A stretch of 41,896 nucleotides of DNA. It comes from Bacilli bacterium. Lineage in GTDB: Bacteria; Bacillota_I; Bacilli_A; RF39; UBA660. Both the position numbers and the translations under genes were made by a program. The DNA lies in NCBI GenBank assembly GCA_017886705.1, contig JAGHJJ010000085.1, forward strand, positions 1 through 41,896, written 5' to 3'. Positions 12,998 to 36,477 of the stretch are shown in pieces. How positions within the stretch are numbered: the stretch's first letter is position 1; every line of letters starts with the position of its first letter. The notes beneath the pieces were generated by a model. That model did not search any database and was not told the origin of the DNA. It worked only from the letters and a program-made list of their open reading frames with translations.

Positions 12998-13038
12998 CTC
13001 GAACAATAGAAGTTTGAGTACTAATTAATCTGGTACCG
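12998..13038 (-). repeat. att-like site A (CGGTACCA-N12-CTCAAAC...GTTCGAG on minus strand)
   Basis: Same ACCA-12 nt-CTCRAA architecture as the sites at 14000..14043 and 36406..36477. Confidence 0.55.
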
Positions 13039-13116
13039 TTGAGAATGTTATCTACAACTTTTACTAAAGGTAATTGATATTAGAATCAATAACTAAATAT
13101 ATTTTAATAAAAGAAG

Positions 13117-13147
13117 AAAAATAGCAACTACATATAGTGCTGTTTTT
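13117..13147 (-). terminator. Terminator of 13146..13832
   Basis: AAAAATAGCAACTA-CATA-TAGTGCTGTTTTT bulged hairpin with A/T tracts on both sides. Confidence 0.6.
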
Positions 13148-13832
13148 ATCGTGTCATTCTTTTTTTATAAACATGACCTTGTGCGTCATCATTTGATTCG
13201 AGGCTTTGAATTTTTCTATTAATTTTATTTAATAATTCATTATCCGAACTATTTGATTGTTGCATTAATTCATCTAGTTGAGTTTTTATTTTTCTCTTTT
13301 TATCGATTTCATTCTTTACTGCATAAGGAATATATGGCAAAATAATACATTTGCCATCCTCTGTTATTTCTGAAACTTGACCTGTATTTTCATCATAAGC
13401 ATATTCTAAAAAAGGTCTTGCTACTTGCTTTTTAGACTTTTCCAATAAAGCTATTAAGTAACCAGGATTTAGATTGTTTTTTTTACAACAATCATCTATA
13501 TTAATTGATTCAGAAATAATTAGATATGCTAAATTAGACTCGAAAATTTCTAACTCATGAACACTATTTTCTAATTCTTGATGTTTCATTTCTAATTTTG
13601 ATGCAATATTAATTTTCTTTTCTACTTTAAAAAAATGCGCAATCGATAAAACCGAAGACATTCTACTATATTTTCTTTTTGCTTTTCTTAAATTAACCTG
13701 AAGGTCATTTAATCTACTATTATTAAATTCTTCAATATTTTTGTTTAAGAAATATCTTTGAGCCAATTCGCTATTTGTTAAAAGATTGAGAAAATGATTA
13801 TTTTTTTTAATCCTAATATACATATAAATCAA
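13146..13832 (-). CDS. Orphan hypothetical protein (coiled-coil-rich), cassette cargo
   Basis: 228-aa ORF, RBS AGGGAG before TTG, own terminator; no recognisable motif. Confidence 0.7.
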   Translation of the reverse strand: MIYMYIRIKKNNHFLNLLTNSELAQRYFLNKNIEEFNNSRLNDLQVNLRKAKRKYSRMSSVLSIAHFFKVEKKINIASKLEMKHQELENSVHELEIFESNLAYLIISESINIDDCCKKNNLNPGYLIALLEKSKKQVARPFLEYAYDENTGQVSEITEDGKCIILPYIPYAVKNEIDKKRKIKTQLDELMQQSNSSDNELLNKINRKIQSLESNDDAQGHVYKKRMTR

Positions 13833-13999
13833 TCTCCCTTTTTTGTATATTTTATATTGACATTTACACCATATTATAAGTAATTACAGTATACATTGTC
13901 AATATCATTGTATTCTTTGAAATTTATATTTGATGAAAGACATAAATCATAAACATCAACCTTTCTTCTAGGTTGATTCCTATATCAAAAGTTTGTGCT

Positions 14000-14043
14000 T
14001 TTTGAGCAGATTTCCCTATGGTGCCAAAAGACAGAATTGAACT
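14000..14043 (-). repeat. att-like site D: copy of tRNA-Thr 3' end plus N12-CTCAAAA
   Basis: 14019..14043 matches the reverse complement of 35696..35720 at 24/25 nt. Confidence 0.8.
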
Positions 14044-14091
14044 ATACAAGTAACATAGGAGATATCTTTTTAAAAAAATATTAAAAAGATG

Positions 14092-14127
14092 TTGACAAAT
14101 ATATTAGTTATTAATATAATGTTAATA
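14092..14127 (+). promoter_or_regulatory. Consensus SigA promoter overlapped by palindromic operator (probable NrtR box)
   Basis: TTGACA-17-TATAAT; GTTATTAA-TATAATG-TTAATAAC palindrome centred on the -10. Confidence 0.85.
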
Positions 14128-14163
14128 ACAAGTGAAGAAACTTGTGATTTTAATACTATATGA

Positions 14164-14182
14164 TATTAATAAAATATTAATA
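14164..14182 (+). promoter_or_regulatory. Second operator TATTAA-N7-TTAATA before pncA RBS
   Basis: TATTAA TAAAATA TTAATA directly before AGAGGAG. Confidence 0.7.
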
Positions 14183-14197
14183 AGAGGAGAGAAAAAT

Positions 14198-14791
14198 ATG
14201 AATAAAATTAAAAAATTAGAAGTTTATGAAAGTATGTTAATTATTGTTGATATAGTAAATGGTTTTGTAGAGGAGGGAAGTCTACATGATAAAAAAATAG
14301 GAAGAATAATTCCAAGACAAATTGAACTAATTAAAGAAGCACATGCTAAAGGTTCACTAGTTATCTTTGTAAAAGATGCTCATAATGAAGACGCAGTAGA
14401 ATTTAGACGTTTTGGCAATACGAAACATTGCGTAAAGGGAACGAAAGAAGCAGAGCTTGTAGATCAGTTAAAGCCTTTTGAGGAAATGGATGATACGATT
14501 TCAGTCGAAAAGAATAGTACAAGTTTTATGGAATCCCCTGATTTTAGAACGGTTGCAGCTAGTGCGAATAACATTAAAAAAGTAGAATTAGCCGGTTGCT
14601 GTACAGATATTTGTGTTTTTAATGGAGCGATGGGACTTGCTAATTACTATGACCAGTGGAATCGAGCAGTAGATATAACGGCACATGAAGATGCTATCGC
14701 AACATTTGATGAAGAACACCGTCGTGAATATGTACAATCAGCGAAACTACTTATGAGGCTACAAGGAATAAACATAGTAAGTAAGAAATGA
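14198..14791 (+). CDS. pncA: Nicotinamidase (isochorismatase/cysteine hydrolase family)
   Basis: VDIVNGF, DAH, HCV, EK, GCCTDICV catalytic and metal motifs; upstream of pncB. Start at ATG 14198 after RBS. Confidence 0.85.
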   Translation: MNKIKKLEVYESMLIIVDIVNGFVEEGSLHDKKIGRIIPRQIELIKEAHAKGSLVIFVKDAHNEDAVEFRRFGNTKHCVKGTKEAELVDQLKPFEEMDDTISVEKNSTSFMESPDFRTVAASANNIKKVELAGCCTDICVFNGAMGLANYYDQWNRAVDITAHEDAIATFDEEHRREYVQSAKLLMRLQGINIVSKK

Positions 14792-14813
14792 TAATTATTT
14801 TTTTAAAACAAGA

Positions 14814-14832
14814 TATTAACAAAAGATTAAAA
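14814..14832 (+). promoter_or_regulatory. Operator copy before pncB
   Basis: TATTAA CAAAAGA TTAAAA immediately before RBS AAGGAG. Confidence 0.6.
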
Positions 14833-14849
14833 AGAAAAGGAGAATAACT

Positions 14850-16322
14850 ATGTATAATAAAACATTAATGACAGATTTTTATGAGTTAACAATGGCCGGG
14901 ACATATTTCAATGAAGGAAAGAAAGAGGAGCAAGTATATTTTGATATTTTCTTTCGTAAGAATCCTTTTGAAGGTGGATACACAATCAGTGGAGGATTAG
15001 ATGAGACTATAAATTATATTAAAAACTTCTATTTTGGAAAAGAAGAGTTAGATTACTTAAGAAAATTAGGAAAATTCAACGAAGATTTTTTAAATTATTT
15101 AAGTACTTTAAAATTTGAAGGAGATATTTATGCTGTACCTGATGGAACAGTAGTATTTCCAAATGAACCAGTATTAACAGTAAAAGCCGATGCCGTAACA
15201 GCTCAAATATTAGAAACAGCATTACTTGCTAATTTCAATCATGGATCTTTAGTAACAACAGCAGCAAAAAGAATTACGAATGAAGCCAAAGGTATTCCAG
15301 TAATGGAGTTTGGAGCAAGACGTGCTAGAGGAATTGATTCCGCAATAGAAGCAAGTAAATGTGCATATATCGGAGGATGTGTAGGAACATCTAATACTTA
15401 TGCCGGTATGAAATATGATATCCCCGTCATGGGAACTATGGCTCACTCATTGGTAACAGAAAGTGAAGATGAATATGATGCCTTTTTAAAATATGCAAAA
15501 AGTAATCCTGATAACTGTGTCTTCCTAGTTGATACATACGATACTTTACATAGTGGTATTCCTAATGCCATCAGAGTCGCAAATGAATACCTAACACCAA
15601 ATGGATATCCCTTTAAAGGAATACGAATTGATAGTGGAGACTTAGCATATTTATCAAAAGAAGCAAGAAAAATGTTAGATGAAGCAGGATATAAGGATAC
15701 AGGAATTTGTTTATCAAACGGATTAAATGAGTATACGATCAGAGATTTAATTACCCAAGGAGCAAAGATTAATTCGATTGGTGCCGGAGATAACATTGCT
15801 GCTCCTAAAGAAAGAGTAGGAGGAGTTTATAAACTAGTAGCAGTAGAGGAAAATAAGGAAGCTAAACCAAGAATTAAAGTAAGTAATGACAGTATTAAAA
15901 CAATTAATCCTGGATATAAAAAGGTATATCGCTTCTATGACAAAGATACTGGATATGCGCTAGGAGATGTTATTACATTAAATGAAGAAGAAATTAGTAA
16001 AAATCACTATACACTAGTTCATCCAGTAGAGACATGGAAGAGGACAGAATTAGAAAATTATAATGTAAGAAGTCTATTAGTACCAGTATTTAAAAATGGA
16101 GAATTAGTATACCAAGATCCAAGTTTACAAGAAAAACAAGAATATTGTGAAAAAGAATTTGAAACACTATATCCAGAAGTAACAAGAATTGATAAGCCTC
16201 ATGAATATTACGTAGACTTATCAGACAAATTAAGAACCCTAAAACAAGAACTAATTGAATTTCATCAAAATGAAATAGCTGAAAAAGGAAAGGAATACGC
16301 CAAATGTGCAAAGAGAAGTTAG
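14850..16322 (+). CDS. pncB: Nicotinate phosphoribosyltransferase
   Basis: TDFYELTM, FFRKNPF, EFGARRA, GTMAHS, LVDTYD, RIDSGDL, GGVYKLV. Confidence 0.95.
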   Translation: MYNKTLMTDFYELTMAGTYFNEGKKEEQVYFDIFFRKNPFEGGYTISGGLDETINYIKNFYFGKEELDYLRKLGKFNEDFLNYLSTLKFEGDIYAVPDGTVVFPNEPVLTVKADAVTAQILETALLANFNHGSLVTTAAKRITNEAKGIPVMEFGARRARGIDSAIEASKCAYIGGCVGTSNTYAGMKYDIPVMGTMAHSLVTESEDEYDAFLKYAKSNPDNCVFLVDTYDTLHSGIPNAIRVANEYLTPNGYPFKGIRIDSGDLAYLSKEARKMLDEAGYKDTGICLSNGLNEYTIRDLITQGAKINSIGAGDNIAAPKERVGGVYKLVAVEENKEAKPRIKVSNDSIKTINPGYKKVYRFYDKDTGYALGDVITLNEEEISKNHYTLVHPVETWKRTELENYNVRSLLVPVFKNGELVYQDPSLQEKQEYCEKEFETLYPEVTRIDKPHEYYVDLSDKLRTLKQELIEFHQNEIAEKGKEYAKCAKRS

Positions 16323-16939
16323 AAGAATTAAATGACTATATAAAGGAATTACAGACTATTACAAAAGAAAGAAAAAAGGAAGAATTTATATATCAAGGAA
16401 CAGAACCCGTTCAAAGAAAAGGATTCATTAATGTAGAAAGTTATAATTGTAAACTACAAAATGGAATAATAATACCAAGAGAAAAAATAGTAAAAGGTAC
16501 AAACGATGGTAATGCCGCAATTATCTTACCAATCACAAAAGAAGGGAATACTTTATTAGTAGTACAACCAAGAGTATTTACAAAAGAAACAGTATGTGTA
16601 GAGTTGCCTGCTGGATATTTAGAAAAAGATGAAGATCCATTAACTGCAGGAAAAAGAGAATTAGAAGAAGAAACAGGATACGTTCCAGAAGAAATGAGAC
16701 TACTAGCTAGCTTTTATCAAGATCAAGGATGTAGTGCAGCTTATAATCATAGTATGTTAGCACTAGGTTGTAAAAAAATAAAAGAACAAAACTTAGATAA
16801 AGATGAAATCATTCGTTATTTTGAATGTAGTTTTGACGAAGCTGTAGAATTAGTAGAACGTGGATATATCACAGATATTCAATCTCAATTTACAATAGAA
16901 AAAGCAAAGTCATACGTATATCAAAAAATAAAAAAGTAA
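16304..16939 (+). CDS. Nudix hydrolase, ADP-ribose pyrophosphatase (NudF-like)
   Basis: ELPAG...E.P..A.KRELEEETGY Nudix box; LDKDE motif; NAD-cluster context. Confidence 0.85.
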   Translation: MCKEKLEELNDYIKELQTITKERKKEEFIYQGTEPVQRKGFINVESYNCKLQNGIIIPREKIVKGTNDGNAAIILPITKEGNTLLVVQPRVFTKETVCVELPAGYLEKDEDPLTAGKRELEEETGYVPEEMRLLASFYQDQGCSAAYNHSMLALGCKKIKEQNLDKDEIIRYFECSFDEAVELVERGYITDIQSQFTIEKAKSYVYQKIKK

Positions 16940-16997
16940 CATGAAATTTAGTAAAAAAGAAAAAATTTTGATACACTATAAAAAAGGAGTGATACAA

Positions 16998-18935
16998 GTG
17001 AAAGAATATGGATTTATTAGAGTAGGTGCCATAGTAAATAAATTGTCATTAGCTAATCCTATGAAAAATGCAGAAGAAATCATTAAGGAGATAAAAAAGG
17101 CAGTAACAAAAGGAGTATCGATTGTTACAACACCAGAACTTTCTTTAACAGGCTATACTTGTGGTGATTTATTCTTACAAGATCAATTGTTAATTGATAG
17201 CGAAAAATCCTTACAAAAGGTATTAGAGGAGACTAAAAAACTAGATATTATTTCCATAATAGGAATGCCAATTAGACATGATAATCAGCTGTTTAATTGT
17301 GCTGTAGTAATAGAAAAAGGGAAAATATTAGGTGTCATATCAAAGACTTATATTCCTAATTATCAAGAGTTTTATGAAGCTAGATGGTTTTCTTCTAGTA
17401 AAGAGTTAAAAACAAATGAGGTAGAATTATTAGGTCAATTAGTTCCTATCTCTACTAATTTATTATTTCAAGATAAAACACGAAAAGAGATTACTTTTGC
17501 TATTGATATTTGTGAAGATTTATGGACAGTAACTCCTCCAAGTGATTCTCATGCTTTACATGGCGCAACAATTATCTTTAATTTATCTAGTAGTAATGAA
17601 CTTATTGGAAAACAAGAGTATCGTAAGAGTTTAGTTGCTATGCAATCAGCTAAAACAATTTCTGCTTATATTTATGCATCTAGTGGAGTAATGGAGTCAA
17701 CCTCAGATTTAGTATTTGGTGGTGCTAGTATGATTTATGAAAATGGTTCTTGTTTAGCAGAAAATAAACGCTTTGAACTAGAAAGTAATCTAATTACTGC
17801 AGATATTGATGTTTTAAAATTAGCAAATGATCGTAGAAAAAATAAAAGTTTTATGCATATGGCACCAAGTCAAGAGTACAACGTAATAAAAATAGAGGTA
17901 GTAGATACCATAAAAGAATTACAAAGAGATTATAAAGAATATCCCTTTGTTCCAGCAAATGAACAAGAAAGAAATAACAGATGTGAAGAAATTATAGAAA
18001 TCCAGTCCAGTGCTCTAGCAAGAAGATTAATTCAACTTGGCAATCCAAAATGTGTCATAGGAATGTCTGGAGGACTAGACTCAACTCTTGCTTATCTTGT
18101 TATTGTAAAAGCTTTTGAAAAATTAAATAGAGATACAAAAGATATTATTGGTATTACGATGCCAGGATTTGGAACTACTGGTAGAACTTATCAGAATGCT
18201 ATAGATTTAGTAAAAGAGTATGGAGCAACACTAAAAGAAATTAGTATTAAAGATGCTTCTATTCTACATATGAAAGATATTGGCCTACCAGAAACGGATA
18301 GAAGTGTTACTTATGAAAATATTCAAGCTAGAGAACGTACTCAGATATTGATGGATGTTGCTAATATGGAAGGGGGATTAGTCATTGGTACTGGGGATTT
18401 ATCAGAACTAGCTTTGGGTTGGTGTACTTATAATGGGGATCATATGAGTATGTATGCAGTTAATACTTCTATTCCTAAGACTTTAGTTCGTTATTTAGTT
18501 GGTTGGGTAGCTGATAGGGCTGAAGGAAAGAAAAAAGAAGTTCTAAAAGATATACTAGATACACCAATTTCTCCAGAATTATTACCACCGGACGAAGCAG
18601 GAAATATTTTACAAAAAACGGAATCTAGTATCGGACCATATGTATTACATGACTTCTTTCTTTATCATTTCTTAAGATATGGAGCAACACCTAAAAAGAT
18701 ATATGTTCTAGCAAAATATACTTTTAAAAATAGTTTTACTAAGGAAGAGATAAAAAAATGGTTAAAAGTATTTATTAGACGTTTCTTTACTCAGCAATTT
18801 AAGAGAAACTGTATTCCTGATGGAGTAAAAGTAGGTAGTATTAGCTTATCTCCAAGAGGTGATTTGCGTATGCCAAGTGATGCTAGTTATGAGGCTTGGT
18901 TAAAAGAATTAGATGAGATAAAAGAAGAGGATTGA
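16998..18935 (+). CDS. nadE: Glutamine-dependent NAD+ synthetase
   Basis: Nitrilase domain (PELSLTGY, K..IPNY.EFYE.RWF, ICEDLW) plus synthetase domain (SGGLDST, ENIQARER, GTGDLSE, QQFKR). Start at GTG after AGGAG. Confidence 0.95.
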   Translation: MKEYGFIRVGAIVNKLSLANPMKNAEEIIKEIKKAVTKGVSIVTTPELSLTGYTCGDLFLQDQLLIDSEKSLQKVLEETKKLDIISIIGMPIRHDNQLFNCAVVIEKGKILGVISKTYIPNYQEFYEARWFSSSKELKTNEVELLGQLVPISTNLLFQDKTRKEITFAIDICEDLWTVTPPSDSHALHGATIIFNLSSSNELIGKQEYRKSLVAMQSAKTISAYIYASSGVMESTSDLVFGGASMIYENGSCLAENKRFELESNLITADIDVLKLANDRRKNKSFMHMAPSQEYNVIKIEVVDTIKELQRDYKEYPFVPANEQERNNRCEEIIEIQSSALARRLIQLGNPKCVIGMSGGLDSTLAYLVIVKAFEKLNRDTKDIIGITMPGFGTTGRTYQNAIDLVKEYGATLKEISIKDASILHMKDIGLPETDRSVTYENIQARERTQILMDVANMEGGLVIGTGDLSELALGWCTYNGDHMSMYAVNTSIPKTLVRYLVGWVADRAEGKKKEVLKDILDTPISPELLPPDEAGNILQKTESSIGPYVLHDFFLYHFLRYGATPKKIYVLAKYTFKNSFTKEEIKKWLKVFIRRFFTQQFKRNCIPDGVKVGSISLSPRGDLRMPSDASYEAWLKELDEIKEED

Positions 18936-18980
18936 AAGAGAAAACTGGTTGTTATATAATAACCAGCAGGAGGGTAATTA

Positions 18981-19481: not shown

Positions 19482-19524
19482 AAAACAGTATAGAGGAGCA
19501 ATCCTCTTAAATTTAAATATATGA

Positions 19525-19543
19525 TATTAATAAAATGTTAATA
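19525..19543 (+). promoter_or_regulatory. Operator copy before radical SAM gene
   Basis: TATTAA TAAAATG TTAATA directly before AGGAGG. Confidence 0.75.
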
Positions 19544-19555
19544 AGGAGGATAAAT

Positions 19556-20608
19556 ATGAAAATAGTAAAGAACAAATTCGGGGAAGGAATACTTTACCAA
19601 GAAGAAGATTTAAAAGGAAAAATTTATGCAACAAGTGCAGCTTGTATGTCTGTGTGGAGTGATATGTTATCTTTTGCAAATAAATATAAAGATAGGTTTG
19701 TAAGTGAAATAGGGAATGCTGATAGTATCGTTGTATTAGGTTGTCAAGTAACAGATTTAGCAGTATTAAATGATCTAAATGTTGCAAACAAATTGCATGA
19801 AGAAACAGGAAAAGATATTTTCATGGGAGGATGTCTTGCTCAAAGAATGGATATACCATTACCAGAATATATCAAAAGATTAGATGTAGTTAGAGTAATA
19901 GGACAAGAATTAGATGACAGAAGTTTAGTTCATTATGAAAAACCCTTCTGGGTACCAGAGTTTGAAGAAAGTAAAGATAATTTAAAAGAAGGTAATCTAT
20001 TTAGAAATTATTATCCATTAAAGATTGGTGCAGGTTGCCATGGAAAGTGTAAATATTGTACCATTCGTCATACTAGAGGAGAAGGGTATGAAATGGTACC
20101 AGAAGAGCAAATTGAAGAATTTTTAAATCATGAACATGTGGTGTTAACATCTGATAGTCCTACTGTATCTCAAGTAAAAGCCTGGTGTAGGATTGCCAAA
20201 GAATGTAATAAGGAAATATCTATTAGAAATATTGAGCCACAGAACTTAATACAATGTAGAGAAGAACTATTAGAGTTAGCAGATAACCACTTATTAGATA
20301 TTGTTCACTGTCCCGTACAAAGTTTTGATTCAGAACTATTAAAAGCAATGAATAGAAGTGTTACTGCAACAAATCAAGCAGTAGACTTATTATATGAATT
20401 AAGAGAAAAAGAAGTTATTACGGCTACGAATATTATTATCGATTATATGACAGATGGAAAACTATATCCAAATCATGACATTGAGAAATTACAAGAAAAC
20501 TTTGATTATTATTCTTGGAATCCTTACTTTGATGGTAATTTTGATATGGATAGAGCAAAGCAACGATTTAAAAAATATATCACAAATGAAAAAGTAACTC
20601 AAAAATAA
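19556..20608 (+). CDS. Methylthiotransferase-like radical SAM protein (UPF0004-like N-domain plus radical SAM core, no TRAM)
   Basis: Three N-terminal Cys (AAC, LGCQV, GGCLAQ) as in MiaB/RimO/MtaB; KIGAGCHGKCKYCTIRHTRG CxxxCxxC; HCPVQS...LKAMNR. Confidence 0.8.
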   Translation: MKIVKNKFGEGILYQEEDLKGKIYATSAACMSVWSDMLSFANKYKDRFVSEIGNADSIVVLGCQVTDLAVLNDLNVANKLHEETGKDIFMGGCLAQRMDIPLPEYIKRLDVVRVIGQELDDRSLVHYEKPFWVPEFEESKDNLKEGNLFRNYYPLKIGAGCHGKCKYCTIRHTRGEGYEMVPEEQIEEFLNHEHVVLTSDSPTVSQVKAWCRIAKECNKEISIRNIEPQNLIQCREELLELADNHLLDIVHCPVQSFDSELLKAMNRSVTATNQAVDLLYELREKEVITATNIIIDYMTDGKLYPNHDIEKLQENFDYYSWNPYFDGNFDMDRAKQRFKKYITNEKVTQK

Positions 20609-22150: not shown

Positions 22151-22209
22151 ATTTTCACCTTCCTTTATAAAGTATCATAATATAATAAAGAAATTTTTGC
22201 AAAAAATAG

Positions 22210-22245
22210 TTGACAAATTTTATAGTTATTAATATAATGTTAATA
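22210..22245 (+). promoter_or_regulatory. Consensus SigA promoter overlapped by palindromic operator
   Basis: TTGACA-17-TATAAT; TAGTTATTAATATAATGTTAATAACA identical to the pncA promoter segment. Confidence 0.85.
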
Positions 22246-22280
22246 ACAGATAACAAATCTGATATTTTTGTAAAAATTGT

Positions 22281-22299
22281 TATTAACAAAAATATAATA
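22281..22299 (+). promoter_or_regulatory. Second operator copy before 22317 RBS
   Basis: TATTAA CAAAAAT ATAATA before GAAAGGAG. Confidence 0.6.
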
Positions 22300-22316
22300 A
22301 GAAAGGAGAAAGTAGT

Positions 22317-22721
22317 ATGGAAATGACAATTACAAAAGATAAAGTAGAGAGAATTTTAACGGATTATTATCGCACTAGAGAAGATATTAAAGGAACGGTA
22401 AAAATGAAAACAAAAAAAGAACAAGTTGGATACTACACAAGTGAGCATACTGCAGCAGTTACAACGATAGAACTTTCTGGAACTACAACACTTTTTGGTA
22501 CAGAAATACCAGTAAAAAGAGTGATACCGTTCGAAGAGTATGAAGGCATTTTTAAAAGCTTATTAGAAGAACAAGGTTATGAAGTAAATAAATTATGGAT
22601 TGATAATGGTGTAAATACAGAATGGACAGGTTGGGGACCAATGGAGTCTAGAGAGGAAAAGCCATATTGTAATGGAATAACAATAGATGTAGATAAACAA
22701 GTAAAAGAATACAGAAAATAA
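22317..22721 (+). CDS. Hypothetical protein heading the prs-nadD transcript
   Basis: RBS AAGGAG; 134 aa; no recognised motif. Confidence 0.75.
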   Translation: MEMTITKDKVERILTDYYRTREDIKGTVKMKTKKEQVGYYTSEHTAAVTTIELSGTTTLFGTEIPVKRVIPFEEYEGIFKSLLEEQGYEVNKLWIDNGVNTEWTGWGPMESREEKPYCNGITIDVDKQVKEYRK

Positions 22722-22741
22722 TTTATTTTTTTAATATTAGA

Positions 22742-22760
22742 TATTAACAATATATTAATA
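22742..22760 (+). promoter_or_regulatory. Operator copy before prs
   Basis: TATTAA CAATATA TTAATA before GAGAGGTG. Confidence 0.75.
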
Positions 22761-22775
22761 AGAGAGGTGAGAAAT

Positions 22776-23849
22776 ATGAATAATTTAAAGATAATTGTTT
22801 TAGATAACATGAGAGAAGTAGGAAATAATGTTAATTTAAAATTAAAAAAATTAAGAGGTGAAAATAGGGATTACTTATTAAAGATTACAGAAAGTAGATT
22901 TTCTAATGGGGAAGGTAAAGTAAAAATTGAGGATACTGTAAGAGAGAAAGATATTTATTTACTAGCAGATGTAGGAAATTATGGAATTACTTATAATATG
23001 CATGGGTTTACACATCATATGGCACCAGATGAACATTTTCAAGATATCAAAAGAACCATTTCAGCTATCTCTGGATATTCAGAAAAAGTAACTGTAATTA
23101 TGCCACTTTTATATCAATCAAGACAACATAAAAGGAAGGGAAGAGAGTCCGCAGACTGTGCTTTAGCACTACAAGAATTAGAACGATTAGGAGTAGACCA
23201 TATTATTACTTTTGATGCTCATGATCCTACAATTTCTAATGCCATTCCTAATTTACCATTTGAAAATATCTATCCAACCAATACCATTTTAGAGGATTTA
23301 TTAAAGAATGAAGATTTAAATGATATTTTAGTAATTAGTCCAGATTTAGGAGCGACAGAACGTGCTAGATACTTTGCTGAAATGTTAGATACTAATGTCG
23401 GAGCTTTTTATAAAAGACGAGATTTAACAAAAGTAGTGAATGGTAAAAATCCTATTATAGAACATACTTACATGGGACCAAGTGTAAAAGGGTGTGATGT
23501 TTTAGTAGTAGATGACATGATAGCAAGTGGTACTTCTATGTTGGAAGTAGGAGAAAAGTTAAAAAAAGATGGTGCTAATAAAGTGTATTTTATTGCAACT
23601 TTCTCCCTATTTACAGAAGGAATAGAAGAATTTGATAAAGCGTATCAAAATAATTATTTCGATAAACTATACACAACAAACCTATCTTACATTCCAGAAG
23701 AATATAGAAATAAAGAATGGCATCATACAGTAGATTGTTCCGAGAGTATTGCAGAGATTATCAATACTTTACATAATAAAGAATCGTTAAGACCGTTATT
23801 TAATGGAAAAGAGAAAATATTAACATTACGAAAGGAGAAAAAATTATGA
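22776..23849 (+). CDS. prs: Ribose-phosphate pyrophosphokinase (PRPP synthetase)
   Basis: RFSNGEG, SRQH.R.GRES, TFDAH, SPDLGA..RA, VVDDMIASGTS. Confidence 0.93.
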   Translation: MNNLKIIVLDNMREVGNNVNLKLKKLRGENRDYLLKITESRFSNGEGKVKIEDTVREKDIYLLADVGNYGITYNMHGFTHHMAPDEHFQDIKRTISAISGYSEKVTVIMPLLYQSRQHKRKGRESADCALALQELERLGVDHIITFDAHDPTISNAIPNLPFENIYPTNTILEDLLKNEDLNDILVISPDLGATERARYFAEMLDTNVGAFYKRRDLTKVVNGKNPIIEHTYMGPSVKGCDVLVVDDMIASGTSMLEVGEKLKKDGANKVYFIATFSLFTEGIEEFDKAYQNNYFDKLYTTNLSYIPEEYRNKEWHHTVDCSESIAEIINTLHNKESLRPLFNGKEKILTLRKEKKL

Positions 23850-30540: not shown

Positions 30541-30573
30541 TCTTTTATTGTATAATGATAATAGGGTGATAGT

Positions 30574-31167
30574 ATGAATAACTTGTTTTATAGGATAGTA
30601 CGTCTTATAGTAAGATTTTTATTCTTATCCTTGTTTCGACCTAGGATAAAAGGAATTGAGAATATTCCTAAGAATGAAAATTACATCTTAGCTGGAAATC
30701 ATACAAAATGGTTAGATCCCGTAATGTTAGTAGCTATCGTAAAAGATGAGATTCACTTTCTTGCGAAAGACTCTTTATTCAAAGGAATAACAAAACCTAT
30801 TGTTAAAGGTATGGGAGCAATTTCAGTAAATAGAAAGATTCATGATCATCAAGCCTTAGAAAATGCCATAGATGCTTTAAGAAAAGGCGCTGTAATAGGA
30901 ATATTTCCCGAAGGAACAATCAATAGAGAGAAAAAAGAGCCTACGTTACCTTTTAAAATAGGAGCAGTAAAAATGGCAAATACAACAAATACTAAAATTA
31001 TACCATTTGTAATTACTGGTAAATATAAAGTATTTTCATCTACCATCACAATAGAATTTTTAAAACCAAGGACTATCTCTAATAATTTAGATTTAGAAAA
31101 TGAAAAATTAAGAGACGAAATAAATAAAAAATTGGAGGAAAAATATGAATGTAGTCAATCTAATTAG
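30574..31167 (+). CDS. plsC: 1-acyl-sn-glycerol-3-phosphate acyltransferase (copy 1)
   Basis: NHTKWLD (HX4D), FLAK, IFPEGT. Confidence 0.88.
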   Translation: MNNLFYRIVRLIVRFLFLSLFRPRIKGIENIPKNENYILAGNHTKWLDPVMLVAIVKDEIHFLAKDSLFKGITKPIVKGMGAISVNRKIHDHQALENAIDALRKGAVIGIFPEGTINREKKEPTLPFKIGAVKMANTTNTKIIPFVITGKYKVFSSTITIEFLKPRTISNNLDLENEKLRDEINKKLEEKYECSQSN

Positions 31168-32887
31168 ACAGAAAATGATGAAGACACCTTGGACAAAATA
31201 TTATAAAAAAGAAGATAGAAAAATAAAAATAGAAGATATTTCTATTTATCAAATGTTAGCAAAAAATAATATTTCAAGAGATAAGAATATCGCAATTAAT
31301 TATTATGGAACGCTAATTACTTATAAAGAACTTTTTCATAAAATTAATCAAGCTGCGAATGCTTTTCGTAGTCAAGGAATTAGAAGAGGGGATATTGTTA
31401 CAATTTGTATGCCAAACACTCCGGAAGCACTAATTTCTTTTTATGCACTTAATAAAATTGGTGCAATTGCGAATATGATTCATCCCTTATCTGGAGAGCA
31501 AGAAATAAAAGAATATTTAACATCTACTCATAGTGTTATGTTAATTATGATTGATATTTGCTATGAAAAGGTGAAAAATGTAATAAAAGAAACAGATGTA
31601 TATAAGACGATTGTGACATCAGCAAGTGACTCCATGGGATTTTTATTAAGTTTTGGATATCAAGTAACACAGGGATACAAGATAAAAAAACCAAAACGTA
31701 GTGAAGAGTATGTCTATTGGAAAGATTTCATTAGAAAAGGTCTAAATTACCGAGAAACGGGAGAGACTGCTACTGGTAAAGATACACCAGCTGTCATATT
31801 ACATAGTGGTGGAACGACAGGGAATCCTAAAGGTATTGTGTTATCTAATGGAAACTTTAATGCTTTATCTATGCAAGCAAAAATTGCTTTTAATGAAGTT
31901 CGTCCTGGTGAAAAAGTACTAGCAATCATGCCTATTTTTCATGGATTTGGTTTAGGTGTATCTATCAATGCTCCTTTAGTGTTAGGGTGTGAAGTCATAT
32001 TAATACCACAGTTTAATGCTAAAAAGTTTGATAAATTATTAGAAAAATATAAACCTAATGTTTTATTCGGAGTTCCCACTCTTTTTGAAGCTTTAATTAA
32101 TACAAAAAATGAACGTTTGGATTTAAGTATGGTAAGATATGTCATTAGTGGAGGAGATAGCTTGTCTAGTTCTCTAGAAAGAAGAATTAATGTTTTCTTA
32201 GCGAGTCATAAAGCAAGAGTAGAGATTTCTCAAGGATATGGAATGACAGAGTCTTTAGCAGCCGTAGCACTTGCTTTTGGAAAAGCTAATAAACCTGGTA
32301 GTATTGGAATACCTTTTCCTAGTAATTATATAAAAATAGTAAAACCTAGGACCCAGGAAGAAGTACCATATGGAGAAGATGGAGAAATTTGTATTTCTGG
32401 ACCAACAGTGATGTTAGGATATTTAGACAATGAAAAAGAAACTAATGAGATGCTACAAATTCATAAAGATGGTCTTGTTTGGTTACATACTGGTGATATG
32501 GGAATGATGGATGAGGATGGAGTAGTGTTTTACCGTCAGAGAATAAAGAGAATGATTATCTCTAGTGGTTATAATATTTATCCAGCTCATGTAGAACAAG
32601 TAATAGAAGAACATCCGGCTGTATTAAAATGTACTGTAGTAGGTATTCCACATCCATATAAGATGGAAGTTCCTAAAGCTTATATTGTATTAAAAAATGG
32701 ATATAGCCCATTAGGTGTTAGAAAAAGTATTAGAGAACAGTGTAAAAAGAATTTGGCTGCCTATGCGATTCCATATGAATTTGAATATCGAAAAAGTCTT
32801 CCTAAAACATTAATTGGTAAAGTAGACTTTAAAAAATTACAAGAAGAAAATAGCGAGCATAGAAAGAGTGTTAGAGATGGAAAATAA
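31145..32887 (+). CDS. Long-chain fatty acid-CoA ligase (class I adenylate-forming)
   Basis: HSGGTTGNPKG, GYGMTE, WLHTGD, R.K.MII.SGYN, PKT.IGK. Confidence 0.88.
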   Translation: MNVVNLIRQKMMKTPWTKYYKKEDRKIKIEDISIYQMLAKNNISRDKNIAINYYGTLITYKELFHKINQAANAFRSQGIRRGDIVTICMPNTPEALISFYALNKIGAIANMIHPLSGEQEIKEYLTSTHSVMLIMIDICYEKVKNVIKETDVYKTIVTSASDSMGFLLSFGYQVTQGYKIKKPKRSEEYVYWKDFIRKGLNYRETGETATGKDTPAVILHSGGTTGNPKGIVLSNGNFNALSMQAKIAFNEVRPGEKVLAIMPIFHGFGLGVSINAPLVLGCEVILIPQFNAKKFDKLLEKYKPNVLFGVPTLFEALINTKNERLDLSMVRYVISGGDSLSSSLERRINVFLASHKARVEISQGYGMTESLAAVALAFGKANKPGSIGIPFPSNYIKIVKPRTQEEVPYGEDGEICISGPTVMLGYLDNEKETNEMLQIHKDGLVWLHTGDMGMMDEDGVVFYRQRIKRMIISSGYNIYPAHVEQVIEEHPAVLKCTVVGIPHPYKMEVPKAYIVLKNGYSPLGVRKSIREQCKKNLAAYAIPYEFEYRKSLPKTLIGKVDFKKLQEENSEHRKSVRDGK

Positions 32888-33476
32888 AGATAAAATGTAT
32901 TTTTACCGTTTCCTAAAACCAATATTAACACCTATCTTTAAATGGTATTATCATCCCAAAATTATTGGAAGAGAAAATATTCCTAAAACAGGTCCTATTA
33001 TCATTGTTGCTAATCACAAACATTTATATGATCAGTGTCTAGCAATTATTTCTACCAAAAGACCGATTCATTATATGGCAAAAAAAGAATATTTTGATGG
33101 GAAAATGGCTTGGTTTTTCAAACTAGCAGGATGTATTTCTGTAGATAGAAGTAAAAAAGATGAACATGCAACAGATCAAGCATTAGAAGTCTTAGAAAAA
33201 GGGTTTGCTTTAGGATTATTTCCAGAAGGAACTAGAAACAGAACGAAAGAACTTTTATTACCATTTAAATTTGGAGCAGTTTCTATGGCAAAGAAAACCA
33301 ATGCTTTGATTGTTCCTTTCGCAATTACTGGAGACTATAAGTTTCGAAGTAAAAACTTAACTGCAAGATTCGGAAAGCCATTTAAAGTAGAAGGAGATTT
33401 AGAACAAGCAAATAAGAAGTTAGAAGCAACTATCAAAGACTTAATGCTTGAAAATCTAAAAAATAGTGGTAAATAG
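32877..33476 (+). CDS. plsC: 1-acyl-sn-glycerol-3-phosphate acyltransferase (copy 2)
   Basis: NHKHLYD, YMAKKE, LFPEGTRN. Confidence 0.88.
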   Translation: MENKDKMYFYRFLKPILTPIFKWYYHPKIIGRENIPKTGPIIIVANHKHLYDQCLAIISTKRPIHYMAKKEYFDGKMAWFFKLAGCISVDRSKKDEHATDQALEVLEKGFALGLFPEGTRNRTKELLLPFKFGAVSMAKKTNALIVPFAITGDYKFRSKNLTARFGKPFKVEGDLEQANKKLEATIKDLMLENLKNSGK

Positions 33477-33542
33477 TGTCAAATAAAGAAAGTTATCACC
33501 ATGATACCTTTCTTTTTATGTTATTATTATACTGGTGATAGC

Positions 33543-34409
33543 ATGAATGAAAACATAATAAAAAATGACTTCGGATCAGAAGATACTTATAAATTGTATC
33601 GTACTGTATATGAAATTATTCATCCAACAATCTCTAAGAAAAACATATCTAATTATAAGATTATGATACAAGAAGATTTAGTGCCATTACGAATCTTTTA
33701 TCCTAAAAAAATATCTACCATTACTAGAGTGATTCTTTATATTCACGGTAAAAGATGGATGATTAATGGTTTTTATTCATATAAAGAGGTATGTGAAAGA
33801 CTAGTCCAAGAAATGGACACATTAGTAATTGCTATTGACTATGAAAATGATTCTTATCAAAAAGTTGTAGACAAAAGTTATCAAACAATCAAATATTTAA
33901 AAGAAGGATTAAATAGAATAGGTATTCAAAATATTATTACTATAGGGGATGCTCTTGGTGCTAGTATTTTAAGTAATGTAGTTTTAATGGATAAATCTAT
34001 CATAGAAAAAGGAATTTTGTTATATCCAGCCTTGGATTTTAATTTTAACATAGAGTATTCATCCTTTGCTCAAAATAATAAATTAGATTTATTGACAATT
34101 CCTCATCTACGGATGTATTGTAATAAGTATGTTGATTTAAAAAATTATCATTCTGTTATGGAAGAGGAAAGCTATAAAGATTGGCCTGATATCTTGATAA
34201 TTACTGGGGACTTAGATCCATTGCGGGATGAAATAGAGGAATTTAGTAAAAGATTACGAAAGGACAATAGAAAATCAAAATATATCAATATTAAGTTTGC
34301 TTCGCATGGATTTTTAAATAGTAAAGATGAGGAAGCCAAAGAAGAATGCTTTAAAGATATGAAAAATTTTATAATAACTAAGAGAAAGGTAGTCATACCT
34401 GAAAATTAA
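33543..34409 (+). CDS. Alpha/beta hydrolase, HSL/Aes-like family, nucleophile Ser absent
   Basis: LRIFYP, HGKRW (for HGGGW), GDALG (for GDSAG), DPLRDE, HGF. Confidence 0.8.
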   Translation: MNENIIKNDFGSEDTYKLYRTVYEIIHPTISKKNISNYKIMIQEDLVPLRIFYPKKISTITRVILYIHGKRWMINGFYSYKEVCERLVQEMDTLVIAIDYENDSYQKVVDKSYQTIKYLKEGLNRIGIQNIITIGDALGASILSNVVLMDKSIIEKGILLYPALDFNFNIEYSSFAQNNKLDLLTIPHLRMYCNKYVDLKNYHSVMEEESYKDWPDILIITGDLDPLRDEIEEFSKRLRKDNRKSKYINIKFASHGFLNSKDEEAKEECFKDMKNFIITKRKVVIPEN

Positions 34410-34433
34410 TGGTATACTGTATTGGTGATAAAT

Positions 34434-34973
34434 ATGGAAAGAAGAAGAACAAAAAAAGATATTGTAAAAATGTTACTTAGAAATAATGAATTAGAAGAAC
34501 AAGATGAAGAAGAATTATTAAATCTATTAATCGATCAACCAATCGCAATCGATGTTGATAAACAGGAAGAAGCTAAAATGACAAAAGGAGATAAAATTGC
34601 GGATAAACTAAGTGAAGTTGCGGGTAGCTGGACATTTATTATTTTATTTGTTGTATTTTTGTTAGGATGGATTGGTCTAAATACGGTATTGTTATCAGGA
34701 GAAGATGCAATTGATCCTTATCCATTTATTTTGTTAAATTTGGTTTTATCATGTATTGCTGCACTACAAGCGCCAATTATTATGATGAGTCAAAATCGTC
34801 AAGCAGAAAAAGATAGCTTGCGAAACCAAAATGATTATCGTACAGATTTAAAAAGTGAATTGATACTAGAATCTTTACATGATCAAATGAATACGATATT
34901 AAAAAATCAGAGACAAATATTAAAGTATATCAAAAATCAGGAGGAACAAGATGAGGAAAAACAAACTAAGTAA
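34434..34973 (+). CDS. DUF1003 membrane protein
   Basis: AD....GSWTFI, DPYPFILLNL.LS..AA.QAPIIMMSQNRQ..KD. Confidence 0.9.
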   Translation: MERRRTKKDIVKMLLRNNELEEQDEEELLNLLIDQPIAIDVDKQEEAKMTKGDKIADKLSEVAGSWTFIILFVVFLLGWIGLNTVLLSGEDAIDPYPFILLNLVLSCIAALQAPIIMMSQNRQAEKDSLRNQNDYRTDLKSELILESLHDQMNTILKNQRQILKYIKNQEEQDEEKQTK

Positions 34974-35514
34974 GTTAGTACTAATATTAATGATGGTGGT
35001 ATTGCTAACTGGTTGTGGCAGTGATAAAAGTAGTACTACTGCGAATAATACCACTGGAAGTAGTAATAATAGTAGTAATGAAAGTACTGTACCTAATTCA
35101 AGTGTATCAGAAAGTGATACTGCTGGAATGGAAAAATTAACTTGCTCTAGAGAAGCAAGTGCAGGTAGTGGAGTAGATGTCAATCTAGATTATGAAATCT
35201 ATTATCAAGGAGAGTATATTCAAATACTTCATTCTACAGAACAAGTAGTAACAGATGACCAAGATACCCTAGATGAGTATGAAGATGCTTATAAAGGAAT
35301 TTATAAACATTATGAAGGATTAAAGTATTATGATAATACAGTAACTAGAACCAATAATTCTGTAACAAGTGATACTGTGATTAATTATGGTAAGATAGAT
35401 ACAGATAAGTTACTAGCTATCGAAGGTGAAGAAGATAATGTCATTAAAGATGGAAAAGTAAAATTAGATGACTGGTTAGATTTTGCAGAGCAATTCGGAA
35501 CGAAATGTGAGTAG
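34951..35514 (+). CDS. Lipoprotein (YehR/DUF1307-like)
   Basis: Lipobox LTGC, S/N/T-rich linker, beta-rich domain ending in G.KCE. Confidence 0.7.
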   Translation: MRKNKLSKLVLILMMVVLLTGCGSDKSSTTANNTTGSSNNSSNESTVPNSSVSESDTAGMEKLTCSREASAGSGVDVNLDYEIYYQGEYIQILHSTEQVVTDDQDTLDEYEDAYKGIYKHYEGLKYYDNTVTRTNNSVTSDTVINYGKIDTDKLLAIEGEEDNVIKDGKVKLDDWLDFAEQFGTKCE

Positions 35515-35524
35515 TTCCTAATAC

Positions 35525-35599
35525 GTTCAAGTAGTTCAACGGATAGAATCTCTTCCTCCGACGGAGATGATACGGGTTCGATTCCCGTCTTGAACACCA
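35525..35599 (+). tRNA. tRNA-Arg (anticodon CCG)
   Basis: Acceptor GTTCAAG/CTTGAAC, anticodon arm TCTTC-CTCCGAC-GGAGA, T arm ACGGG-TTCGATT-CCCGT, encoded CCA, A20 present. Confidence 0.92.
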
Positions 35600-35646
35600 T
35601 ATTGTTATTGAATTAGTATTCATATTATGATAGAATACTTTTATCT

Positions 35647-35720
35647 GCCGATATAGTTTAGTGGTAAAACAGATCCTTGGTAAGGATCAGCGGACAGTTC
35701 AATTCTGTCTTTCGGCACCA
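35647..35720 (+). tRNA. tRNA-Thr (anticodon GGT)
   Basis: Acceptor GCCGATA/TTTCGGC (one T-T mismatch), GATCC-TTGGTAA-GGATC, GACAG-TTCAATT-CTGTC, ACCA. Confidence 0.92.
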
Positions 35721-35826
35721 GATTTTGATGTCAAACTTATACTTTTCAATTTTTCATAATAGTTGATTAGTTTGAGTTTTATTATTTAAAATAATATAAT
35801 TTTTAGACTTTTTAGGGGGAGTAAAA

Positions 35827-36381
35827 ATGTTTGTACCACATAGCCCAGATATGGTTTATGATGTAGAAAGACATTCTGATAGATGTGTTTGTGGATGTTC
35901 TGCACTTGCCACTTGTCATGATTATAATAGTGTTAATTGTGGTTACTGTGAGAGCTGTGCTAAAAAGAGAACAGATTTTGTTACTGATATTACAGGTGTA
36001 ATATCAGTTGGTGAAGAAAATAGTTTTGAATATGCAATATTGGCTACAATTGAAAATATAAGGCAAAATATATTTAAAGAGAGATTTTATTATATGGTTG
36101 ATAACTATTTTGGACAACATCAAAATGATAGTGAATTTACTGAGCCATATGATGATGCGTCCTTTATAGCAAAAGTATATAGAGAAAAAAATAGTATGAT
36201 GCAAACTTTTATATCTAGTATTGTACTACATAATGAAAATAAATTTTCTAAATCAAATAAGATTAATAGAATACTTTCTTATTATAAATCTGAATTAGAA
36301 GCCACAATAGAAAAAGATGAGGATATTTTAGAAAAATGGACCTCTAAGGCTGGAGGTTATTCATATAAAAAAGCAAAATAA
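35827..36381 (+). CDS. Orphan protein with Cys-rich N-terminus, cassette cargo
   Basis: RBS AGGGGGAG; CVCGC..C.......CGYCESC cluster; flanked by tRNA-Thr and its 3'-half copy. Confidence 0.75.
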   Translation: MFVPHSPDMVYDVERHSDRCVCGCSALATCHDYNSVNCGYCESCAKKRTDFVTDITGVISVGEENSFEYAILATIENIRQNIFKERFYYMVDNYFGQHQNDSEFTEPYDDASFIAKVYREKNSMMQTFISSIVLHNENKFSKSNKINRILSYYKSELEATIEKDEDILEKWTSKAGGYSYKKAK

Positions 36382-36405
36382 TATGTTATTATCCGCCCTT
36401 CCTTT

Positions 36406-36477
36406 CCTCGATAAAGATTAGCGGTAAGTTCAATTCTTACTTCCGGCACCAGATTGATAATTGCTCGAACGTACGAG
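36406..36477 (+). repeat. att-like site C: diverged tRNA-Thr 3' half plus N12-CTCGAAC
   Basis: 36406..36455 aligns ungapped to 35675..35724 at 41/50 nt with a compensated T-stem (GTAAG/CTTAC). Confidence 0.8.

Follow-up and report, generated by a model that had tools for sequence, protein, structure and literature searches.

tRNA-end arrays of small recombinase-less cassettes in an uncultured Bacilli genome and their probable link to a family of large serine recombinases

Two cassette arrays on one contig

The window analysed here, a stretch of 41,896 nucleotides, is the entire contig C5 of a metagenome-assembled genome of an uncultured member of the Bacilli (G000; 1.64 Mb, 29% G+C, 123 contigs, 77% complete), and it carries two arrays of small genes that lie behind an intact tRNA-Thr gene and behind a remnant of a tRNA-Thr 3′ end, respectively. 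An original prediction, made from the letters of this DNA, had described four sites (A to D) that share one architecture when read in the sense of the tRNA, namely a CCA end, a short spacer, and a small hairpin opening with a CTCRAA-like motif, and had regarded them as scars left by a trans-acting site-specific recombinase. All four sequences do read in this way, with a spacer of exactly 12 nt at A, C, and D, as described, and of 9 nt at B (Table 1). Comparison with related genomes leads to the view, to which a probability of roughly 0.8 is given, that A to D are attachment joints of an integrative family driven by large serine recombinases (LSRs) and that the window contains two piles of LSR-less units.

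Pile 1, behind the live tRNA-Thr, would then consist of cassette 1, a truncated copy of a miniature element (M_X), and more modules, and pile 2, behind remnant D, of cassette 3 and a decayed element. Each pair of sites encloses, as anticipated, a single orphan open reading frame (ORF) in the tRNA sense, over 731 bp (B to C) and 988 bp (D to A). The accessory or decayed genes expected after the second site are present in both arrays as well, being the truncated M_X and further modules in the first and a fragment of an AAA_14-type ATPase gene in the second. Likewise, no recombinase was found near the arrays, since the window contig holds neither a serine nor a tyrosine recombinase gene.

Table 1. 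Coordinates of the tRNA genes, joints, cassettes, and related elements; positions refer to the window unless another contig or genome is named.
Feature	Position	Strand	Description
tRNA-Arg(CCG)	35525-35599	+	ARAGORN and Rfam
tRNA-Thr(GGT)	35647-35720	+	ARAGORN and Rfam; live anchor of array 1; last bases ..CGGCACCA, taken as left arm of the attachment site
Site B	CCA end 35720	+	followed by gattttgat-GTCAAAC...GTTTGAG; spacer 9 nt
Site C	36416-36451, CCA end 36451	+	followed by gattgataattg-CTCGAAC; spacer 12 nt; right end of cassette 1
Site D	14019-14042, CCA end 14019	-	followed by tagggaaatctg-CTCAAAA; spacer 12 nt; anchor of array 2
Site A	CCA end 13031	-	followed by gattaattagta-CTCAAAC...GTTCGAG; spacer 12 nt; right end of cassette 3
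Cassette 1	35721-36451	+	731 bp; left end GATTTTGAT-GTCAAAC...GTTTGAG; one orphan ORF; right end is site C
Orphan 1 ORF	35827-36381	+	184 aa; Cys-rich N-terminus
Truncated M_X	36452-36850	+	399 bp; left end GATTGATAATTG-CTCGAAC; 35-aa ORF at 36682-36789; right end missing
ORF6N (KilA-N-like) gene	37166-37639	+	in the variable stretch behind the tRNA
M_ABC	37777-39720	+	three-gene module: 37801-38616, ABC ATPase 38585-39244, 39237-39722; window copy without right end
Radical-SAM gene	39858-40673		behind M_ABC, followed by one further ORF
Cassette 3	13031-14018	-	988 bp; left end TAGGGAAATCTG-CTCAAAA; one orphan ORF; type-A right end 13031-13100 ending ..CTCAACGGTACCA, which is site A
Orphan 2 ORF	13146-13832	-	228 aa
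Remains of a further element	12783-13030	-	left end GATTAATTAGTA-CTCAAAC..GTTCGAG (12998-13030); 50-aa N-terminal AAA_14-type ATPase fragment (12783-12935)
C91 cassette (locus L178)	G000 contig C91, 12349-13164		729 bp; tRNA-Leu(CAA), left end TTGGGAAATTA-GTCGAAC, 115-aa ORF, type-A right end ..CCTCAATGGCACCA, plain native terminator
G008 element	genome G008, from the tRNA-Thr CCA to ..ACTCGCACCA		6.4 kb; 94-aa ORF, LSR, Mob_Pre relaxase, two cargo genes

Architecture of the joints

The sites differ in how much of the tRNA they retain. Site C is a 36-nt copy of the 3′ part of tRNA-Thr, covering the variable loop, T arm, acceptor strand, and CCA, in which the T-stem changes are compensating. 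Site D is a 24-nt tRNA-Thr 3′ end from the T loop to the CCA, with one mismatch and without the 5′ half, and site A has only CGGYACCAGATT in common with tRNA-Thr. The 23-24-nt tRNA-Thr 3′ word occurs three times in the genome, always on the window contig, and its reversed-pattern control gives 0 occurrences. The enrichment of the bare motif ACCA-N12-CTCRAA that the original prediction had called for did not materialize: the two strands of the genome together give four matches, where base composition predicts 4.1, and of these, three are A, C, and D and the fourth (1406-1427, minus strand) has no tRNA-like context. Therefore, the signal lies in the full architecture and not in the short motif. 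A class-wide count of CACCA-N12/13-TCRAAC in 401 genomes, which barely exceeds its reversed-pattern control, is uninformative because the pattern is too short. Rfam returns just the two tRNAs, at gathering thresholds as well as, within 35600-37200, at E ≤ 1, with site C and M_X matching no family.

Among the 25 tRNAs of G000, two carry an element-type trailer, the tRNA-Thr of the window and a tRNA-Leu(CAA) on contig C91. In 10 operon-ending tRNAs of this genome, the terminator helix begins 10-13 nt past the encoded CCA, the helix start being taken from the main helix of predicted structures, given that the first paired base of the minimum-free-energy fold proved a poor measure. Spacing this regular could play a part in 3′ processing, and the left ends of the elements may copy it; the element hairpin may be a site for a protein or may take the place of the native trailer. 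It could even be held that there is no mobile system at all, the 12 nt and the hairpin being an RNA-level tRNA trailer and terminator in a region rendered hypervariable by homologous recombination, an idea with which the native trailers and the left ends resembling them (ATATGATA..) agree. Such an explanation leaves the pseudo-tRNA right ends, the linkage to LSR genes, the empty and filled sites, and the identical cassettes at unrelated anchors, all described below, without a cause; it is disfavoured and appears barely tenable.

Large serine recombinases beside the same joint

The link to serine recombinases comes from relatives of G000 (coded by further G numbers, such as G008). Five genomes of the genus contain 32 places with a Resolvase domain, and in two of these genomes, G012 and G008, an LSR gene (582 and 622 aa, respectively) is located 0.6 kb behind tRNA-Thr in the same orientation. 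Upstream DNA was taken for 23 of the 32 places, that is, for these two and for 21 genes in 20 stretches. The nine left out are three ORFs with lengths of 203-233 aa, a pair of fragments on G008:C74, two genes on G006:C6 with scores that repeat those of G008:C1, a gene located at the start of a contig, and G006:C9:15659. A same-strand tRNA is found in seven of the 20 stretches (Gly-TCC twice, His twice, Cys, Cys together with Gly-GCC, and Gly-CCC), four of which match the regular expression CCA-12/13 nt-[CT]TCGAAC.

Judged by its gene content, the element behind tRNA-Thr in G008 (Table 1) is an integrative mobilizable element (IME). Its LSR comprises PF00239, PF07508, and PF13408 (Resolvase, Recombinase, and Zn_ribbon_recom), and that of G012 comprises PF00239 and PF07508; the N-terminus of the former reads ..GLYIRVSTEDQ, in which ..YIRVSTEDQ is presumably the catalytic-serine nucleophile motif. 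In NCBIfam, the nearest models are XisF and CcrB/C/A, far under the cut-offs, and the nearest solved chain is the catalytic domain of the TP901-1 integrase (E 9e-20).

The association of this LSR family with the joint was counted in the best 80 (72-100% identical) of 467 relatives, obtained from a scan with one genome per species. These 80 stem from bins of gut metagenomes with labels such as uncultured Bacilli, Tenericutes or Mycoplasmatota, Candidatus Onthousia, Coprobacillus sp. CAG:605, and Clostridium sp. CAG:433. In 71 of the 80, a joint of the form CCA, 12 nt, YYCGRAC lies 525-2266 nt upstream of the gene, the spacer being exactly 12 nt in every one of the 71; the recombinase that the original prediction had proposed to look for beside the same motif is thus present in the relatives. 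Intact tRNAs on the same strand end 525-1335 nt before the start of 53 LSR genes, namely Gly-TCC (14), Thr-GGT (8), Thr-CGT (7), Met (7), Gly-GCC (5), Leu-GAG (3), Leu-CAA (3), and single cases of Phe, Gly-CCC, Cys, His, Arg-CCT, and Leu-TAG. In a further 18, the joint follows either a tRNA truncated at the edge of its contig or a right end of the pseudo-tRNA kind, which in L077 and L096 is the type-A end seen at site A of the window. No joint was found for the other nine of the 80, seven of which have less than 300 nt of upstream DNA. The left-end class tracks the last five bases of the anchor without exception across the 71 joints (CACCA 30, CTCCA 30, TACCA 10, CCCCA 1), and thus one LSR lineage serves several tRNA species sharing those bases. 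The notion of tRNA-Thr as the platform therefore survives in part: two LSRs of the genus stand directly behind tRNA-Thr, and G014 has two LSR elements in tandem there, but the family is not specific for tRNA-Thr, as at least 13 tRNA species are used.

Cassettes at different anchors in related genomes

Behind tRNA-Thr, the DNA is a mosaic of modules across the genus. All 20 other genus genomes that were compared with the window match the DNA upstream of tRNA-Thr, and the alignment ends exactly at 35720 in 12 of them; in three more, it continues for 1-26 nt because the following sequence begins alike. After the CCA of tRNA-Thr, nearly all have 12 nt, a small TCGAAC hairpin, and a terminator-like hairpin, with varying sequences, and G016 has a plain terminator only. 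Cassette 1 was found in none of the 20, and a relative of orphan 1 occurs, at 29% identity, in one of 70 other genomes of the family (one genome sampled per genus). Searches in Pfam, NCBIfam, and Atlas gave no confident relative of orphan 1, DUF6061 lying below the cut-off and the Atlas lead being weak (0.85). In contrast to flanks of 73-89% identity, M_ABC is 92-96% identical in G012, G017, and G006; it starts 187 bp past the tRNA-Thr CCA in G017 and 185 bp past another CCA joint in G012. A 78%-identical copy of the ORF6N gene lies 62 bp past the tRNA-Thr of G006. The check on strain differences that had been suggested is accordingly positive, given that the genus genomes diverge exactly at CCA joints and that both empty and filled sites exist.

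In array 2, the D remnant is conserved beside an isochorismatase-family gene in G013, G006, and G008. Cassette 3 is at the same place in G013 and G006, and G008 has other DNA behind D. Since the G008 array has different joints, D is a shared anchor with species-specific content. At this locus (L044, on G008:C12), between the thymidine kinase gene and the isochorismatase-family gene, the array behind D measures 8.6 kb in G008 versus 1.6 kb in the window. The left end of cassette 3, TAGGGAAATCTG-CTCAAAA, is recognizable as a decayed form of the LSR-element class TAGGGAAATCCG-CTCGAAC. For orphan 2, Pfam, NCBIfam, and Atlas gave no function, and no right end turned up between the further element behind site A and the thymidine kinase gene.

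Evidence that such units shift comes from the C91 cassette of G000. In G006:C49 and G013:C55, the same tRNA-Leu(CAA) runs straight into the same terminator, and these are therefore precisely empty sites. The cassette itself recurs in G013:C10, where 734 bp are 100% identical, at a different anchor and ahead of yet another left end; this anchor is a tRNA-3′-half-like sequence that ARAGORN does not call as a tRNA and that was not found in the G000 assembly. G000 has a further trace of the family on contig C71 (1-3901), which begins with a Mob_Pre-like relaxase gene (70.7% nucleotide identity to that of G008) and carries at 3901 a family-type right end, ..GCTCCA, followed by a terminator; it probably represents the right-hand portion of such an element, cut off on its LSR side by the contig start.

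The second case is M_X, which in full length is 481 bp without a recombinase and of which the window holds the left four-fifths. Copies 85-96% identical to that of the window are present in G006, G012, G002, G009 (two in tandem), G018, and G003, and weaker ones in G024, whereas the flanks of tRNA-Thr in genomes with the 85-96% copies are only 71-89% identical. Each copy begins directly past ...CACCA, at no fewer than seven different anchors, including a real tRNA-Arg(CCT) in G003, a tRNA-3′-half-like sequence in G002, pseudo-tRNA ends in G012, G006, and G009, and site C in the window. Full copies end in AGTGATTG..hairpin..AAGTTGTAGATAACTTTCCCAATGGCACCA, the type-A right end that is also seen at site A. 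BLAST with a 70-nt type-A right end detects it in 13 of 21 genomes, a lower bound because the search missed the known copy on contig C91 of G000 itself, with the weakest rows possibly being noise.

In G006, M_X stands exactly between ..CTCAACGGCACCA and GATTAATTAGTAC.. (GATTAATTAGTACTCGAAC), a place that is uninterrupted at site A of the window and in G013. The left copy is host-like and the right copy is M_X-like up to CACCA, and therefore exchange took place at or just past CACCA, outside the T-loop-like part. The two ends of M_X, like those of the C91 cassette, have only CACCA or GGCACCA in common (plus GATTAAT at one site). Cassette 1, cassette 3, M_X, and the C91 cassette each hold no or one small ORF and no recombinase.

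These patterns bear on tyrosine integrases. Such enzymes classically target tRNA 3′ ends, and sites C and D could be displaced direct repeats of the tRNA 3′ end left by classical tyrosine-integrase islands. Their copies (36 and 24 nt) begin in the variable and T-loop region, a frequent crossover zone of these enzymes, and the IMEs listed at tRNA 3′ ends in the consulted sections of PMC5704250 are those with tyrosine integrases. However, none of the six Phage_integrase (PF00589) matches in G000 is on C5 (they are on C31, C24, C97, C35 (two), and C103), the gene on the joint side is an LSR in 71 of 80 relatives, the short words common to both ends are all that is repeated at M_X and the C91 cassette, and the G006 pattern excludes a T-loop crossover. 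Tyrosine integrases were rejected for these reasons, and this origin is considered highly improbable.

A third mechanism, that of IS200/IS605-type units moving as single strands, or their non-autonomous derivatives, inserting 3′ of CACCA with subterminal hairpins, was at first favoured. It would account for insertions placed exactly 3′ of a short word found again at the right tip, for the lack of a target duplication, and for the hairpin at a fixed 12 nt inside the left end, and G000 does possess one Y1_Tnp gene, an IS200-type transposase gene on contig C38 (180-536) with GC-rich hairpin ends. Yet the ends of the C38 element are unrelated to the cassettes and lack CCA-N12-TCGAAC. Y1_Tnp (PF01797) stays below the cut-off in four of five genomes searched, though G006, G012, and G008 carry cassettes. 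CACCA alone is expected about every 2 kb, yet the insertions are found at tRNA ends or their mimics. The unrelated C38 ends and the linkage of LSR genes to the joints (71/80) led to this mechanism being dropped, and it is scarcely credible now.

Site C itself has been used by an LSR element. For 35300-37300, 20 metagenome runs contain at least half of the sampled words, and the 23 runs in which the stretch is found, from 12 studies, are mostly chicken gut metagenomes; assembled contigs of four runs (including X6, X13, and X19) were compared with 33000-41896. In X6, a contig of 1081 nt equals window positions 35691-36452 with 0 differences and then continues into TAGGCAATCTGTCCAGAC..., and another contig arrives from ...CGAAAAAAGTTTGAAACTACTTGATTACTC and joins the window at 36446. 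The two flanking sequences are the left and right ends of a G008-type LSR element. The LSR element of a near-identical strain in this sample therefore sits at exactly 36451/36452, with ..CCGGCACCA to its left and GATTGATAATTG to its right, and site C is thus a used attachment site. In X19, a contig of 272 nt spans site C without interruption. The contigs of the four runs contain no joint that skips 35721-36451 and no circle joining a right end to a left end, a result that is uninformative because contigs drop rare forms. Two contig joints run in "go back" order, from 37733 to 35780 in X13 and from 39548 to 37958 in X19, with 9 and 25 extra letters between their sides and outside the CCA joints; they could be rearranged arrays of other strains.

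The LSR origin of the joints could hold even if the cassettes were immobile, that is, dead deletion remnants of formerly autonomous elements, or scars resembling cis-mobilizable elements (CIMEs), with variation arising through vertical decay and the homologous exchange of entire arrays. Degenerate left ends in the window (the 9-nt spacer at B and CTCAAAA at D), the missing right end of its M_X, the position of cassette 3 shared by G013 and G006, and the weak Atlas lead (0.85) of orphan 1 to "mobilization protein" clusters, as the remnant of a mobilizable element might give, would all suit this. Against it stand the 729-bp cassette, 100% identical at two anchors and with two precise empty sites, the presence of M_X at seven or more anchors with far better conservation than the core flanks, and the lineage-unique cassette 1, which fits exactly between the CCA and the next joint. 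Immobility of the cassettes is hence regarded as unlikely.

Proposed mode of insertion and its difficulties

If the joints are those of an LSR family, autonomous members would consist of a left end, an ORF of ~94 aa, the LSR, a Mob_Pre relaxase, cargo, and a right end. The LSR would recombine the circular joint of right end and left end with a tRNA 3′ end or a mimic of it. Insertion would take place exactly at the CCA end, with the exchange inside the last 5-7 bases (GCACCA here), so that the tRNA would stay intact and no long repeat would arise. The left end would offer 12 nt followed by a small hairpin with TCGAAC, and the right end a tRNA-like arm (AAAAGTT.TA.A ... GCACCA) or, at C and D, an outright copy of the tRNA-Thr 3′ end; because it resembles a tRNA end, the right end would provide a new target, and elements would pile up. 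The cassettes are probably moved in trans by the LSR of a co-resident element, as the genome comparisons suggest. Of the trans-acting recombinase originally postulated, then, the shifting of recombinase-less stretches as units (729 and 481 bp) is supported by filled and empty sites, and the action in trans is suggested by comparison only.

The geometry of the joint was derived by profiling distinct sequences, namely 54 tRNA arms, 20 pseudo-tRNA arms, and 50 left ends. The tRNA-arm consensus is GGTTCGAATCC, that of the pseudo-tRNA arm is AAAAGTT.TA.A, with its GTT placed 4 nt farther away from the CCA than the GTT of true T loops, and that of the left end is ....GAAATCTG.TCGAACTTTT. The left-end TCGAAC is the reverse complement of the T-loop GTTCGA, both being symmetric about the CC of CCA, and nt 72/73 is the axis of symmetry between the pseudo-tRNA arm and the left end. 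The exchange point would accordingly be at nt 72/73 or at the CC of CCA, with the TCGAAC hairpin and the T-loop GTTCRA as putative distal contacts of the zinc-ribbon domain. A central dinucleotide at nt 72/73 would by itself account for the strict correspondence of left-end class with the last five bases of the anchor; one at CC would require the protein to read neighbouring bases. The LI integrase, in the consulted portion of PMC3783163, has its zinc-ribbon motif at positions 16-24 of attP and 5 bp nearer the centre in attB, a scheme that the present joints fit only loosely. The fixed spacing, which had been likened to an LSR att arm, recurs as 12 nt at 71 of 71 LSR joints, but 12 nt is a native terminator spacing as well.

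Several observations weigh against this interpretation. No LSR gene lies on the window contig, and the only serine recombinase found in the 77%-complete G000 (on C24, 410 aa) is 25% identical to the LSR family and adjoins no such joint. The 12-nt spacing, being native in 10 tRNAs of G000, may reflect tRNA trailer function. The left-end TCGAAC is at the distance of the tRNA arm (attB type) and not 4-5 bp further out, as a symmetric attP predicts. Sites C and D are long tRNA copies that exchange inside the CCA does not produce. The cassettes of the window have left ends with partial decay (CTCAAAA, GTCAAAC, and the 9-nt spacer at B), so some cassettes may have ceased to be substrates. Canonical LSRs recombine attP with attB only, and the arrays would need insertion into hybrid (attL-like) or attP-like joints and, with it, an unusually tolerant enzyme. 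Finally, the 100%-identical cassette in G013 could stem from a co-binned strain because this genome is 7% contaminated, although its anchor differs regardless.

Relation to known systems and significance

Serine-recombinase IMEs of the Tn4451 family and of streptococci, as portrayed in the consulted sections of PMC5704250, are alike in being small and site-specific, with one LSR, a Mob_Pre/MobV relaxase, and very short end repeats. They integrate inside dispensable protein genes, in contrast to the CCA end of many intact tRNAs used here. CIMEs and their accretion, as in ICESt1/CIME of Streptococcus thermophilus, resemble the present arrays in consisting of att-flanked units that have lost integration and transfer genes, stand in tandem with autonomous relatives or share their site, and can be moved by the recombinase of these relatives (same source and sections). 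The window and its relatives likewise show att-bounded units without recombinase or transfer genes, an autonomous LSR element at site C (X6), and tandem LSR elements (G014). As for an origin by deletion, the left end of cassette 3 matches an LSR-element class, and the lead for orphan 1 is the weak one from Atlas. CIMEs differ in depending on tyrosine recombinases and in being kilobases long, rather than LSR-linked units of 0.5-1 kb that recur at different anchors.

The Dehalococcoides ssrA islands (DsiB), so far as the consulted part of PMC3146451 goes, share a Ccr-like LSR, a tmRNA target, and tandem islands downstream, some without an integration module and proposed by the authors to be cis-mobilizable. 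Their insertion is in the T loop of one gene, with a 20-bp direct repeat and an integrase reading towards attL, unlike the joint at the CCA of many tRNAs, the tRNA-mimic right ends, and the miniature cassettes described here. The staphylococcal cassette chromosome (SCC, including SCCmec, with CcrAB or CcrC) is similar in that LSR-driven cassettes, including ccr-less units, are stacked at one site, and it differs in its single target at the rlmH 3′ end, its 10-60 kb cassettes, and its two-protein or CcrC recombinase. The ccr-less SCC units are mobilised in trans.

With integrons, the arrays have in common small, mostly single-ORF cassettes without recombinase that stand in one orientation behind an anchor and are reshuffled among genomes. 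Integrons rely on the tyrosine recombinase IntI, an attI/Pc platform, and attC sites (57-141 bp, folded, G|TTRRRY), none of which is present here, where the recombinase is mobile; the boundaries lie at the CCA, 12 nt before a hairpin, and the hairpins are 15-21 nt. The integron-like capture at a tRNA end that the original prediction had envisaged therefore holds as to the stacking behind the tRNA and otherwise remains an analogy, because there is no resident platform integrase, attI, or attC, and the recombinase rides on autonomous mobilizable elements. A bolder proposition is that this gut Bacilli family runs an integron-like cassette system at tRNA ends, with mobile LSRs that exchange DNA in the final bases of any tRNA with suitable acceptor-end bases, portable tRNA-end mimics brought along by every inserted unit to serve as new landing sites, and single-ORF cassettes of 0.5-1 kb, equipped with just a left and a right end, that are captured, stacked, and moved between species in trans; it is advanced tentatively, at somewhat less than even odds.

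No description of LSR integration at tRNA CCA ends was found in the literature searches made; both versions of a large LSR survey (PMC10083194) lack the word "tRNA" in their main texts, though the attB tables of that work may list tRNA targets. The CCA target common to many tRNAs, the right ends copying a tRNA end, and the cassettes of 0.5-1 kb were not found described. An LSR family using the encoded CCA end would be a distinct solution to integration at tRNA genes, with one lineage serving several tRNAs that share nt 72-73. tRNA-mimic right ends would explain the unlimited growth of arrays and the gathering of orphan genes behind tRNAs in small genomes. If true, no LSR-dependent mobile units known to us would be smaller than these precisely moving recombinase-less ones of 0.5-1 kb, and such short cassettes would make the site rules, hybrid-site tolerance, and directionality of LSRs directly testable.

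The small ORF of M_X and neighbouring genes

The 35-aa ORF of M_X varies among copies by an in-frame 3-nt insertion and synonymous changes and is probably translated. Within 36560-36790, M_X has a TTGACA-type promoter-like site inside an inverted repeat (GACACTC..GAGAGTGTC) and a strong Shine-Dalgarno sequence; the ORF ends in KCSC and contains a terminator-like hairpin. M_X is also a frequent neighbour of the ABC module, and a radical-SAM gene follows at 39858-40673. Speculatively, the region could be a small peptide system, such as a bacteriocin or one resembling ribosomally synthesized and post-translationally modified peptides (RiPP-like).

The 21 kb from D to the tRNAs are occupied by apparently ordinary core genes, for example, those for the isochorismatase-family protein and NAPRTase. 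The stretch upstream of the isochorismatase-family gene, which has no Rfam match at gathering thresholds, recurs at 74-85% identity before other genes on the contig and in relatives (14071-14215, 22186-22337, 19518-19572, and 22729-22783) and may be a shared leader or operator. Immediately left of array 2, 8276-11752 encodes a surface protein of 1158 aa with a thioester domain and nine SpaA-type prealbumin-fold repeats, of the pilin or adhesin type.

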